Shown here: positions 25,205 through 30,078 of the stretch, in pieces | Position numbering within the stretch: the first letter of the stretch is position 1 | Layout: every line of letters starts with the position of its first letter | Source: Moniliella sp. 'wahieum' | Taxonomy: Eukaryota | DNA: 30,078 bases | NCBI GenBank assembly: GCA_003971905.1 | Contig: RSEE01000133.1 | Location: 124,001 to 154,078 of the forward strand | Direction: 5' to 3' | Program-made: the position numbers and the translations under genes | The notes under the pieces: model-generated | Told to the model about the DNA's origin: nothing | Databases searched by the model: none | Seen by the model: the letters and a program-made list of their open reading frames with translations, nothing else

Positions 25205-25381
25205 TTACAAGGGCATGCCCACCCCACCCATTCAGGGTTACAAGGGCATGCCCACCCCACCCATTCAGGGTTGAGACAACTTTTGACTGGAAGACCACGG
25301 GAGTGAGTTAGTTTGAGTAGCCCAAGGCTGTAGCTATCCACCCCTACCACTCTCACTGTGATGCGACGCCTGGTCTTGGTG
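25205..25381 (+). repeat. Two truncated copies of the 676-bp unit (33 bp: 25205-25237; about 144 bp: 25238-25381)
   Basis: Both begin TTACAAGGGCATGCCCACCCCACCCATTCAGGG. The second continues TTGAGACAACTTTT...CCTGGTCTTGGTG with a few substitutions, then diverges. Confidence 0.92.
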
Positions 25382-25445
25382 TGTCGGGGGGTGTGTCAGG
25401 CATGGTGGTGGGTGAGGGGGGTGAGGGTTAGGGTGGGGTGGGTGT
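25382..25445 (+). repeat. TG-rich telomere-like tract with one TTAGGG
   Basis: TGTCGGGGGGTGTGTCAGGCATGGTGGTGGGTGAGGGGGGTGAGGGTTAGGGTGGGGTGGGTG; TTAGGG at 25428-25433. Confidence 0.6.
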
Positions 25446-25510
25446 AACTTTTGAACGGGGCGTCGGATGGGAAAACGGAGGGCATATGCTGCATAGAGCG
25501 GACGATTTTA

Positions 25511-25760
25511 TAGCGAGCTATCGCCTCGGCATAACTCTCAACCCTTTGGGTAGCGAGCTATCGCCTCGGCATAACTCTCACACCCTTTGGGTAGCGAGCT
25601 ATCGCCTCGGCATAACTCTCAACCCTTTGGGTAGCGAGCTATCGCCTCGGCATAACTCTCAACCCTTTGGGTAGCGAGCTATCGCCGGCATAACTCTCAC
25701 CCTTTGGGTAGCGAGCTATCGCCTCGGCATAACTCTCAACCCTTTGGGTAGCGAGCTATC
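25511..25760 (+). repeat. 40-bp minisatellite, about 6.3 copies
   Basis: Unit TAGCGAGCTATCGCCTCGGCATAACTCTCAACCCTTTGGG at 25511, 25551, 25592, 25632, 25672, 25709 and a partial copy at 25749; no spacers. Confidence 0.95.
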
Positions 25761-25782
25761 TACCCTCGGCCCTCCCCTAGGG

Positions 25783-28700
25783 TTACAAGGCATGCCCACC
25801 CCACCCATTCAGGGTTGAGACAACTTTTGACTGGAAGACCACGGGAGTGAGTTAGTTTGAGTAGTACAGGCTGTAGCTATCCACCCCTACCACTCTCACT
25901 GTGATGCGACGCCTGGCCTTGGTGGGCAGTGCGCCCTAACTTGACCCCACCCATAGGACCCAGGATGGATGCGACCATGCCAACTTGGGATCTCAGCCTC
26001 CCCAGCTCCCACTTCCCACATCAGTAGTCCCAGTCCAGGAGATGAGCTGACAGTATTCAGATCCATGATCACCTGGTGGAATCGGGTACCTGTCATAGGA
26101 GAGAAGTGGGTGACAGACATCACCGGTCACCGTATATCGTTGAGTGAACATCACCCTTCAACGCCGACCCCAGGACCCAATCGAAGTACCTCAGTGTGTA
26201 GAGCTGGTCAGGAGAAGCGTATCACCGGTCCGATCTCAATCGGACCAATACTGACCGAGTACCGTCCGTGGGAAGTCTGACGGTGAATCACCACCTCTCG
26301 ACCTACAGGGCTCAAACCTCGACCTATTCCAGATCTGTTTCGTGCAGCCTCTAGTCCTTCCCGAGGTCTAGAGGGCCTGGTAGTTTCATTCCGGTCGGAC
26401 CAATATTGACGGACCGAGGTGGAGTTGAACCTGGGGTACGACCTGATACTTACAAGGGCATGCCCACCCACCCATTCAGGGTTGAGACAACTTTTGACTG
26501 GAAGACCACGGGAGTGAGTTAGTTTGAGTAGTACAAGGCTGTAGCTATCCACCCCTACCACTCTCACTGTGATGCGACGCCTGGCCTTGGTGGGCAGTGC
26601 CGCCCTAACTTGACCCACCCATAGGACCCAGGATGGATGCGACCATGCCAACTTGGGATCTCAGCCTCCCCAGCTCCCACTTCCCACATCAGTAGTCCCA
26701 GTCCAGGAGATGAGCTGACAGTATTCAGATCCATGATCACCTGGTGGAATCGGGGTACCTGTCATAGGAGAGAAGGGGTGACAGACATCACCGGTCACCG
26801 TATATCGTTGAGTGAACATCACCCTTCAACGCCGACCCCAGGACCCAATCGAAGTACCTCAGTGTGTAGAGCTGGGTCAGGAGAAGCGATAGCACCGGTC
26901 CGGATCTCAATCGGACCAATACTGACCGAGTACCGTCCGTGGGAAGTCTGACCGGTGACATCACCCTCTACTCGACCTACAGGGCTCAAACCTCGACCTA
27001 TTCCAGATCTGTTTCGTGCAGCCTCTAGTCCTTCCCGAGGTCTAGAGGGCCTGGTAGTTTCATTCCGGTCGGACCAATATTGACGGACCGAGGTGGAGTT
27101 GAACCTGGGGTACGACCTGATACTTACAAGGGCATGCCCACCCCACCCATTCAGGGTTGAGACAACTTTTGACTGGAAGACCACGGGAGTGAGTTAGTTT
27201 GAGTAGTACAAGGCTGTAGCTATCCACCCCTACCACTCTCACTGTGATGCGACGCCTGGCCTTGGTGGGCAGTGCCGCCCTAACTTGACCCCACCCATAG
27301 GACCCAGGATGGATGCGACCATGCCAACTTGGGATCTCAGCCTCCCCAGCTCCCACTTCCCACATCAGTAGTCCCAGTCCAGGAGATGAGCTGACAGTAT
27401 TCAGATCCATGATCACCTGGTGGAATCGGGTACCTGTCATAGGAGAGAAGTGGGTGACAGACATCACCGGTCACCGTATATCGTTGAGTGAACATCACCC
27501 TTCAACGCCGACCCCAGGACCCAATCGAAGTACCTCAGTGTGTAGAGCTGGGTCAGGAGAAGCGATAGCACCGGTCCGGATCTCAATCGGACCAATACTG
27601 ACCGAGTACCGTCCGTGGGAAGTTGACCGGTGACATCACCCTCTACTCGACCTACAGGGCTCAAACCTCGACCTATTCCAGATCTGTTTCGTGCAGCCTC
27701 TAGTCCTTCCCGAGGTCTAGAGGGCCTGGTAGTTTCATTCCGGTCGGACCAATATTGACGGACCGAGGTGGAGTTGAACCTGGGGTACGACCTGATACTT
27801 ACAAGGGCATGCCCACCCCACCCATTCAGGGTTGAGACAACTTTGACTGGAAGACCACGGGAGTGAGTTAGTTGAGTAGTACAAGGCTGTAGCTATCCAC
27901 CCCTACCACTCTCACTGTGATGCGACGCCTGGCCTTGGTGGGCAGTGCCGCCCTAACTTGACCCCACCCATAGGACCCAGGATGGATGCGACCATGCCAA
28001 CTTGGGATCTCAGCCTCCCCAGCTCCCACTTCCCACATCAGTAGTCCCAGTCCAGGAGATGAGCTGACAGTATTCAGATCCATGATCACCTGGTGGAATC
28101 GGGTACTGTCATAGGAGAGAAGTGGGTGACAGACATCACCGGTCACCGTATATCGTTGAGTGAACATCACCCTTCAACGCCGACCCCAGGACCCAATCGA
28201 AGTACCTCAGTGTGTAGAGCTGGGTCAGGAGAAGCGATAGCACCGGTCCGGATCTCAATCGGACCAATACTGACCGAGTACCGTCCGTGGGAAGTCTGAC
28301 CGGTGACATCACCCTCTACTCGACTACAGGGCTCAAACCTCGACCTATTCCAGATCTGTTTCGTGCAGCCTCTAGTCCTTCCCGAGGTCTAGAGGGCCTG
28401 GTAGTTTCATTCCGGTCGGACCAATATTGACGGACCGAGGTGGAGTTGAACCTGGGGTACGACCTGATACTTACAAGGGCATGCCCACCCCACCCATTCA
28501 GGGTTGAGACAACTTTTGACTGGAAGACCACGGGAGTGAGTTAGTTTGAGTAGTACAAGGCTGTAGCTATCCACCCCTACCACTCTCACTGTGATGCGAC
28601 GCCTGGCCTTGGTGGGCAGTGCCGCCCTAACTTGACCCCACCCATAGGACCCAGGATGGATGCGACCATGCCAACTTGGGATCTCAGCCTCCCCAGCTCC

Positions 28701-30078
28701 CACTTCCCACATCAGTAGTCCCAGTCCAGGAGATGAGCTGACAGTATTCAGATCCATGATCACCTGGTGGAATCGGGTACCTGTCATAGGAGAGAAGTGG
28801 GTGACAGACATCACCGGTCACCGTATATCGTTGAGTGAACATCACCCTTCAACGCCGACCCCAGGACCCAATCGAAGTACCTCAGTGTGTAGAGCTGGGT
28901 CAGGAGAAGCGATAGCACCGGTCCGGATCTCAATCGGACCAATACTGACCGAGTACCGTCCGTGGGAAGTCTGACCGGTGACATCACCCTCTACTCGACC
29001 TACAGGGCTCAAACCTCGACCTATTCCAGATCTGTTTCGTGCAGCCTCTAGTCCTTCCCGAGGTCTAGAGGGCCTGGTAGTTTCATTCCGGTCGGACCAA
29101 TATTGACGGACCGAGGTGGAGTTGAACCTGGGGTACGACCTGATACTTACAAGGGCATGCCCACCCCACCCATTCAGGGTTGAGACAACTTTTGACTGGA
29201 AGACCACGGAGTGAGTTAGTTTGAGTAGTACAAGGCTGTAGCTATCCACCCCTACCACTCTCACTGTGATGCGACGCCTGGCCTTGGTGGGCAGTGCCGC
29301 CCTAACTTGACCCCACCCATAGGACCCAGGATGGATGCGACCATGCCAACTTGGGATCTCAGCCTCCCCAGCTCCCACTTCCCACATCAGTAGTCCCAGT
29401 CCAGGAGATGAGCTGACAGTATTCAGATCCATGATCACCTGGTGGAATCGGGTACCTGTCATAGGAGAGAAGTGGGTGACAGACATCACCGGTCACCGTA
29501 TATCGTTGAGTGAACATCACCCTTCAACGCCGACCCCAGGACCCAATCGAAGTACCTCAGTGTGTAGAGCTGGGTCAGGAGAAGCGATAGCACCGGTCCG
29601 GATCTCAATCGGACCAATACTGACCGAGTACCGTCCGTGGGAAGTCTGACCGGTGACATCACCCTCTACTCGACCTACAGGGCTCAAACCTCGACCTATT
29701 CCAGATCTGTTTCGTGCAGCCTCTAGTCCTTCCCGAGGTCTAGAGGGCCTGGTAGTTTCATTCCGGTCGGACCAATATTGACGGACCGAGGTGGAGTTGA
29801 ACCTGGGGTACGACCTGATACTTACAAGGGCATGCCCACCCCACCATTCAGGGTTGAGACAACTTTGACTGGAAGACCACGGGAGTGAGTTAGTTTGAGT
29901 AGTACAAGGCTGTAGCTCCACCCCTACCACTCTCACTGTGATGCGACGCCTGGCCTTGGTGGGCAGTGCCGCCCTAACTTGACCCCACCCATAGGACCCA
30001 GGATGGATGCGACCATGCCAACTTGGGATCTCAGCCTCCCCAGCTCCCACTTCCCACATCAGTAGTCCAGTCCAGGAG
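25783..30078 (+). repeat. Head-to-tail tandem array of a ~676-bp unit (6 full copies plus a partial one, open-ended), probably subtelomeric/terminal
   Basis: Unit starts at 25783, 26450, 27124, 27799, 28471, 29147 and 29822. Copies are near-identical, differing mainly by 1-nt deletions; the first copy is the most divergent. Confidence 0.97.

Follow-up and report, generated by a model that had tools for sequence, protein, structure and literature searches.

A repeat block with a reused start nucleotide in Moniliella sp. 'wahieum' as a possible re-capped chromosome end

In midges, in green algae and, since 2026, in one order of yeasts, telomerase repeats are known to be replaced or backed up by arrays of long tandem units. 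In the passages on chromosome ends of the report on that order, the Microstromatales, these yeasts are described as having no telomerase, and their chromosome ends consist of kilobase arrays of 41-178-bp motifs, which for the most part are end-specific and stand out as the chief tandem repeats of the genomes (Brejova et al. 2026, PMC13234504). Some of these ends carry a different proximal array, which is read there as an earlier telomere that a new motif has since capped, and circles, TERRA-like (telomeric repeat-containing) RNAs and hallmarks of alternative lengthening of telomeres (ALT) were detected; an ALT-like mechanism has been proposed, with the exact mechanism yet to be elucidated (PMC13234504). 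Here we describe a locus of Moniliella sp. 'wahieum', contained in a stretch of 30,078 nt (RSEE01000133.1, positions 124,001-154,078, forward strand; the window), the last 4.9 kb of which (25205-30078) consist of stacked non-coding repeats built on a 676-bp unit. We suggest, at a probability of roughly 0.4, that 25205-30078 is a composite subtelomere-type block in which one end was re-capped by DNA-templated, ALT-like copying.

Three further systems are close enough for comparison, again as far as the relevant passages of the cited papers describe them. In Chlamydomonas reinhardtii, the order from the telomere inward is a Sultan array, a Spacer of 450-550 bp and a G-rich microsatellite; Sultan elements have a GC content of 53% vs 64% for the genome, and unequal sister-chromatid exchange and break-induced replication have been proposed as their drivers (Chaux-Jukic et al. 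2021, PMC8287924). In telomerase-negative Naumovozyma castellii, a TelKO block is added repeatedly to eroded ends, and an interstitial telomeric word of 9 bp fixes the point at which its copying starts (Cohn et al. 2019, PMC6778800). This copying is DNA-templated and proceeds by invasion of another end or by roll-and-spread from a circle (PMC6778800). The chromosome ends of chironomid midges consist of blocks of 176-350-bp tandem units that are transcribed into non-coding RNA (PMC8508857).

Anatomy of the block and its reused start

The consensus of the repeat unit is 676 bp long (window 28471-29146), and its first bases, TTACAAGG, occur nine times in the window, in 9/9 cases on the + strand. 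Unrelated flanks precede it at 25205 (..GTCAACC), 25238 (..TTCAGGG) and 25783 (..CCCTAGGG), while the occurrences at 26450, 27124, 27799, 28471, 29147 and 29822 are all preceded by ..CTGATAC. A sequence-only reading of this DNA had claimed that the unit start TTACAAGG(G)CATGCCC was joined to three different flanks in three independent events and had added the array-internal junctions as evidence. The three joints hold to the base. By contrast, only two of them, at the F-box-like gene and at the spacer, are clearly independent, because the second and third junctions share AGGG, and the array-internal junctions carry no evidence, since the phase of a tandem array is arbitrary. Two independent junctions suffice to call the unit start special.

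Proceeding from the gene toward the window end, junction 1 (CAACC/TTACA) leads into relic 1 (25205-25237, + strand), which covers unit positions 1-33 with 0 differences to the consensus. Relic 2 (25238-25381, +) follows at junction 2 (CAGGG/TTACA) and corresponds to unit positions 1-144, from which it differs by 3 substitutions but by no indel; its homology to the unit stops after ..CTTGGTG. The next element is a G-rich tract (25382-25445, G-rich strand +), in which TGAGGG, TGAGGG and TTAGGG lie at 25413-25428 and a G-quadruplex (G4)-type motif at 25410-25442; together with the last bases of relic 2 it contains 43 G in 71 nt. It is followed by the unique part of the spacer, 65 bp in length (25446-25510, +), and by a 40-bp minisatellite of 6.3 copies (25511-25760, region to 25782, +; Tandem Repeats Finder (TRF) score 470, 96% matches). 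The degenerate last copy of this minisatellite ends ..CCCCTAGGG, and junction 3 is TAGGG/TTACA at 25782/25783. Comparison of the 401-bp insert as a whole (25382-25782) with the unit gave best local scores of 19 and 24, against a mean of 20.9 and a maximum of 27 for shuffles.

The array proper (25783-30078) comprises six full units of 667, 674, 675, 672, 676 and 675 bp and a 257-bp piece, amounting to at least 6.4 copies. Its first full unit (25783-26449, +), 667 bp as assembled, differs from the consensus by 3 substitutions and 9 one-base deletions. The five full units that follow (26450-29821, +; 672-676 bp) have 0 substitutions among them, and the seventh (29822-30078, +; 257 bp, positions 1 to ~262) is cut by the window end. 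In units 2-7 as a group, 0 substitutions and only 15 one-base indel columns were found. This resembles a long-read consensus in which polishing left errors inside an array that is itself essentially uniform, and single bases of the array thus call for caution; the G missing at 25783 (TTACAAGG-CATG) is probably a consensus error as well. Given that units 2-7 are free of substitutions and that the diverged copies are the relics and the most proximal unit only, the block has the pattern of a distally homogenised satellite. The GC content of the unit array is 55% vs 62% in 1-25204 (53-72% per kb across the window), and no copy of the unit, the spacer or the minisatellite was found in 1-25204, where the best BLAST match was 32 nt long at E 3.9. 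A 33-mer of the unit start had 0 exact matches in prokaryotic genome contigs, as expected.

That proximal ends are fixed while distal ends vary had been noticed earlier, and our measurements agree: copies of 33 bp, of 144 bp and of full length all start with TTACA on the + strand. A random breakpoint would fall on the unit start with a chance of ~1/676 each, or 5/676 if 2 nt of slack are allowed, for every independent coincidence. The earlier claim that this reuse goes beyond plain unequal crossover is borne out, and chance does not explain it either. The GGG/TTA reading of two junctions was likewise recovered, with AGGGTTACAAGG present exactly twice in the window (25234 and 25779) where 0.06 are expected per window; the two occurrences are junctions 2 and 3, and both read AGGG/TTACAAGG. 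At junction 2, 33 bp are perfectly duplicated in tandem (TRF 2.1 copies, 100%); since unit positions 1-2 and 34-35 are both TT, the borders of this duplication are uncertain by those two bases. The unit reads AGGGTT at positions 30-35. Because this 6-nt microhomology is common to both, junction 2 or 3 may derive from the other; in particular, the microhomology together with the presence of AGGGTTACAAGG exactly twice means that junction 2 can arise from a site of the junction-3 type.

The geometry of the joints fits a + strand 3' end extended on a minus-sense template ending ..CCCTTGTAA-3'. The reused start calls for either a template with a physical end (RNA, or nicked or linear DNA) or a short telomere-like entry word. 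The nested relics indicate that seeding began at the identical unit nucleotide more than once, which makes them a clue to the first seeding on a bare end.

The unit is non-coding, as had been stated earlier: frames without a stop extend to at most 108 aa (+) and 136 aa (-), no consensus frame exceeds 136 aa, and none of the unit ORFs (open reading frames) had a Pfam match. An ORF of 216 aa at 28842-29492 was considered and set aside as the product of a one-base deletion in one unit. The Pfam profile scan covered 161 of the 172 window ORFs of at least 90 aa, the other 11 being those that overlap the MFS and DHHC genes described below. No reverse transcriptase domain, for which the sequence-only reading had proposed a genome search, was found among these ORFs; integrase, transposase, recombinase and Rep/helicase domains were also absent from the scanned ORFs. 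Rfam gave 0 matches at the gathering score over the whole window, and at E values up to 10 only five weak ones in 25100-27200, which holds five junctions (TCV_H5, sR55, mir-601 twice and sR32); none of them is credible and none is a ribozyme. No tRNA or transfer-messenger RNA was found in the window, and the hammerhead core (CUGANGA) is absent on both strands. Ribozyme-bearing satellites and genes for retrozyme-like circular RNAs have a self-cleaving ribozyme in every unit, which defines the unit-length RNA; such a reading was rejected for want of an Rfam ribozyme and a hammerhead core, although a novel ribozyme may be present.

Structure predictions were equally plain. Folding of the unit RNA against shuffles gave z values of -0.87 and 0.11 for the two strands, showing no excess, and no boundary stem-loop of single-stranded DNA was found on either strand (z 0.01 to 1.18). 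The unit has no terminal inverted repeats, and its sole hairpin (29045-29071) lies ~75 nt from the unit end. There is no A or T run at the junctions and no telomere-repeat tract between copies; across the window the only TTAGGG is at 25428, and each unit has a single, internal CCCTAA. Helitron, long terminal repeat (LTR) and short interspersed nuclear element (SINE) readings were ruled out on the end sequences, for SINE also by the lack of an A box or tRNA-like fold. Hallmarks of Helitrons are a 5'-TC, a 3'-CTRR, a subterminal 3' hairpin and insertion between A and T. The present unit runs TTACA..GATAC and its flanks end in C, G and G.

Two short motifs lie near the unit boundary. One is a perfect 10-bp palindrome, GGGCATGCCC, at unit positions 7-16 (28477-28486, for example), 6 nt inside the reused start; it could be a recognition site for a protein or nuclease. 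The other, GGTTCAACTCC, is found on the minus strand at 28442-28452 and at the equivalent place of each unit, at a distance of 19-29 nt from the boundary of the unit. Its 6 matches, against 0.5 expected per window, all lie within units and count as one independent occurrence. We take this motif to fit the B-box consensus of RNA polymerase III; neither an A box nor a tRNA-like fold accompanies it.

Possible DNA-templated re-capping of an eroded end

The block is best filed as a variant of the known long-unit terminal or subterminal arrays, one with nested relics that fix the start of copying. One chromosome end would have been shortened and re-capped several times via recombination-dependent copying. 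The candidate routes are ALT-like. Either a sister chromatid or another end would have served as the template of break-induced replication, or unit circles would have been copied in rolling-circle fashion; the same recombination-dependent copying would keep the distal array uniform. The relics could then be ordered as four steps. An array would first have been joined to the F-box region (step 1). It would next have been lost down to unit position 33-35 and re-entered at position 1 (step 2). A further loss would have reached unit position 144 (step 3), and a module of G-rich tract, spacer and array, possibly copied from another end, would then have been acquired (step 4). By inspection, GGTG is common to both sides at the 144-bp break. 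The AGGGTTA at the proximal edge of the array (25779-25785) could have acted as the entry point for eroded ends that finished in ..AGGGTT. We infer the terminal position, the order of events (proximal being older) and the copying mechanism from this arrangement.

Comparison with Microstromatales ends would favor such a history. In both cases a long non-TTAGGG unit forms a kilobase array, and a short proximal array, here the 40-bp repeat of 6.3 copies, lies inside the distal one, so far as the published ends are described; the order of a 'proximal' array followed by a distal array may thus be a shared feature. A fixed start point of terminal long-repeat arrays, looked for only in PMC13234504 and in the passages of the three further papers, is not described in the main text of PMC13234504, no dedicated literature search having been made. 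A 15-mer of the 40-bp repeat is absent from the supplementary tables of PMC13234504 when matched on one strand and in one phase only.

The Sultan subtelomeres offer a likeness in part order. Read inward, the present block gives an array (25783-30078), a spacer (25446-25782) and a G-rich tract (25382-25445), a comparison of architecture and not of homology. The published description also shares with it a conserved phase at the array/spacer junction, a telomere-like word at the unit border and near-identical copies within one end. The order of G-rich tract, ~400-bp spacer and GC-poorer long-unit array would match known chromosome ends maintained by recombination, namely those of Microstromatales yeasts, of Chlamydomonas with its Sultan arrays and of Chironomus. 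Chlamydomonas is a green alga with telomerase and with telomere tracts beyond the array, and, unlike the Sultan ends as described, the locus here has relics of the same unit inside (proximal to) the G-rich tract and abutting a gene.

TelKO may serve as a DNA-templated precedent for a fixed start. The resemblance has limits: each added TelKO repeat of ~275 bp brings telomeric sequence of ~50 bp with it (PMC6778800), and the units here are joined with nothing in between (GATAC/TTACA). The telomere-like AGGGTTA of the present locus is placed at the proximal edge of the array and at junction 2 and, unlike that of TelKO in the published account, not between units. With the chironomid ends the block has in common a long tandem unit in place of short telomerase repeats; these are insects without sequence relation to it, and no relics with a single-nucleotide start appear in the passages of PMC8508857 compared. 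Further points that may favor DNA-templated copying come from the scanned sequence, in which no reverse transcriptase, A-tail, inter-unit telomere tract or ribozyme was found, and from the fungal relatives of the MFS gene together with the Nis1-family ORF, which suggest a fungal host.

Several observations weigh against this reading. The F-box junction, ..GTCAACC/TTACA, has no AGGG, and upstream of the joint it agrees with ..GATAC/TTACA in 1 nt (C) at the most. Entry by microhomology leaves its start at position 1 unexplained, whereas a template that physically ended there would account for it more simply. The array-internal junctions, GATAC/TTACA, are also without AGGG, and circles or internal positions offer TT(A) homology only. 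Given that the window stops in the array and contains only one TTAGGG, 'chromosome end' is an assumption. The distal unit of 676 bp is far above the 41-178-bp motifs of the Microstromatales as published (PMC13234504), although the 40-bp proximal repeat is near that range. Kinship to the Microstromatales would be conjectural: the sole organism-named match of the MFS ORF is from a Ustilaginales yeast, the nearest Atlas clusters of that ORF are commonest in Ascomycota, and those of the DHHC ORF are from plants or algae. All inferences, moreover, come from a single locus in an error-bearing long-read consensus.

RNA templates and other explanations

The rival that fares best, which we hold to be doubtful, is that a minus-sense, unit-length RNA ending ..CCCUUGUAA-3' was reverse-transcribed from free chromosomal 3' ends. 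The element would be non-autonomous, with its reverse transcriptase encoded elsewhere; abortive copies or 5'-short RNAs would have left the 33-bp and 144-bp relics, and end-to-end template jumping or a multimeric or circular template would have produced the head-to-tail array, perhaps expanded later by recombination. Its strength is that one principle covers all three flank junctions, the F-box junction included, because copying begins at the physical 3' end of the template. A fixed proximal end combined with a variable distal end would then be the 5' truncation of RNA that is typical of target-primed reverse transcription, the single orientation (9/9 copies on +) is in keeping with it, and the UAA at the RNA 3' end could base-pair with the TT(A) in which the flanks terminate.

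HeT-A and TART of Drosophila are telomeric retroelements with an oligo(A) tail. Copies of MoTeR (Magnaporthe) and FoTeR (Fusarium) are described as flanked by telomere repeats and truncated away from the primer end (PMC12857005). The endonuclease-deficient Penelope-like elements Athena and Coprina attach to G-overhangs via reverse-complement telomeric repeats and a hammerhead, and Penelope-like elements in general are, in the same account, often 5'-truncated and present as partial tandems, with non-autonomous ones inserting head-to-tail in multicopy form (PMC8557442). The present block resembles such telomeric retroelements, as far as they are described, in its one orientation, in a fixed 3' end that points centromere-ward, in variable 5' truncation and in head-to-tail stacking, and their number includes non-coding members that borrow a reverse transcriptase. 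It is unlike them in that no reverse transcriptase was found in the scanned ORFs and that neither an A-tail nor telomere-repeat tracts between copies are present. The array is moreover regular and resembles a recombination-homogenised satellite, in contrast to their ragged, truncated arrays.

Other observations are hard to fit to an RNA template. The minus-strand 3' end reads ..GGGCATGCCCTTGTAA, without the reverse-complement telomeric repeats and hammerhead of the Penelope type, and no excess RNA structure was seen on either strand. Six consecutive units that are untruncated and free of substitutions, with no extra bases at the joints, are atypical for serial retrotransposition, and the unrelated insert between the relics and the array is left unaccounted for. 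The AGGG common to junctions 2 and 3 is not required by priming from a 3' end, whereas re-entry through DNA microhomology explains it. Of the sequence-only reading, which had favored RNA-templated healing, the defined and reused start stands, while RNA-specific hallmarks are missing from the window sequence. We consider it unlikely that this fungus heals and caps a chromosome end without telomerase repeats in such a way that a reverse transcriptase encoded elsewhere adds copies of a unit-length template with defined ends, a non-coding minus-sense RNA (..CCCUUGUAA-3'), to whatever 3' end is free. If it were true, RNA-templated capping would provide what is still missing for the end-specific long-repeat telomeres of telomerase-negative yeasts, a mechanism of seeding, and the single-nucleotide start of every layer would be the footprint of RNA-template priming.

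Less probable again is an interstitial array. A mobile or integrating DNA, with one end defined, would have inserted in or beside the F-box gene and been amplified in place. This could have happened by site-specific recombination of 676-bp circles or through a rolling-circle or one-ended transposon, with the remainder of the target beyond the window. In its favor, unrelated flanks are joined, in a single orientation, to the defined 5' end of the element, the palindrome GGGCATGCCC sits just inside that end, and nothing in the window proves a chromosome end; the sequence-only reading had itself named the integration of circles as its alternative. By contrast, the ends are unlike those of Helitrons, terminal inverted repeats and a boundary stem-loop are lacking, and the scanned ORFs contain no recombinase, transposase or Rep/helicase domain. 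Integration of whole circles would in addition need extra deletions, each ending at the identical nucleotide, to yield 33-bp and 144-bp copies. If the array is interstitial, or if the phases of other junctions prove random, the finding reduces to an ordinary satellite.

A local origin with accidents is very unlikely in our judgement. In this account the sequence F-box..CAACC-TTACA is natural, the gene is intact and ends ..PYKGMPTPPIQG before its stop, and the array arose by tandem duplication; a 33-bp slippage followed, and foreign DNA then replaced positions 145-676 of the first copy, ending by chance at the unit border. The F-box-like gene is central to it. The earlier F-box assignment was upheld by a Pfam F-box-like match at E 5.7e-6 on the ORF at 24588-25274 (+), and the gene up to junction 1 occupies 24741-25204 (+), with an ATG at 24741 and the ORF stop TGA at 25272-25274. 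The match spans ORF residues 54-84, which correspond to the predicted exon 1. A putative 108-nt intron at 24838-24945 (GTATGT..CAG), with exon 2 starting at 24946, would restore the rest of the F-box motif. The ORF from the ATG at 24741 crosses junctions 1 and 2 and its final 23 codons are repeat sequence.

That the ORF stays in frame for these 23 codons past the junction, most of them ending in G or C, and terminates where the unit has its first TGA speaks for a gene that ends there naturally. An array made in place would also have its first unit start at the duplication breakpoint by definition, and the duplicated 33 bp are identical, with TT at their borders. However, two independent breakpoints would have to fall on one nucleotide, at ~3/111 for the duplication start and ~1/676 for the replacement, and no homologue was found that shows a natural protein end at this place. 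Relatives of the F-box ORF were none at E 0.001 among 1432 longer and 305 similar-length candidates. The earlier statement that a chromosome was 'broken inside an F-box gene' is hence an assumption, as is a natural end of the gene at the repeat.

An assembly artefact, with 25205-25790 as a mis-joined or mis-polished long-read consensus beside a collapsed repeat, is the least credible of these accounts, since the one-base indels that are the sole differences among units 2-7, the 9 deletions in the 667 bp of the first unit and the position of the structure at a repeat edge where the window ends, all in its favor, stand against relics with 0 indels in 177 bp, a 401-bp spacer that is unique and internally coherent, clean junctions and the rarity with which assemblers invent phase-exact nested copies.

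Genes and simple repeats in the rest of the window

The Pfam scan placed a dual-specificity phosphatase ORF at 372-1244 (-), an MFS/TRI12-like transporter at 10858-12479 (+) and a DHHC palmitoyltransferase ORF at 14585-16132 (-). The relatives of the MFS ORF are fungal, its nearest Atlas clusters being commonest in Ascomycota; among its 19 matches at E 1e-10 or better, the sole organism-named one comes from a Ustilaginales yeast (57% identity over 36% of the query). The closest Atlas clusters of the DHHC ORF are from plants or algae, with a score of 0.92 that is below the MFS score, and were given little weight beside the MFS and Nis1-family matches. On this basis the host is taken to be a fungus, possibly a relative of basidiomycete yeasts.

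A Nis1-family ORF at 22789-23250 (+) matched PF19271 at E 3.8e-6, with 27.9 bits vs a cut-off of 27. We take this family to comprise secreted fungal proteins. The ORF sits 2 kb from the repeat block, within a domain-poor stretch (~17-24.7 kb). At the other end of the window, a weak CENP-B_N match at 2796-3110 (-) (E 2.5e-4, 21.1 bits, just below the 21.2 cut-off) is possibly the remnant of a pogo-like transposase.

Since G-rich low-complexity tracts are common in the window, the tract at 25382-25445 is not unique in kind. Simple repeats elsewhere include (GGGCAAGG)7 at 312-368, a G-rich simple run of 72 nt at 3586-3657 and a perfect 30-bp tandem duplication at 4654-4713. An interstitial (ATTGGG)n tract of ~8 copies lies at 14201-14249 (TRF period 6, 8.2 copies), with a G4-type motif at 14222-14258; its hexamer is telomere-like, yet it is no permutation of TTAGGG.

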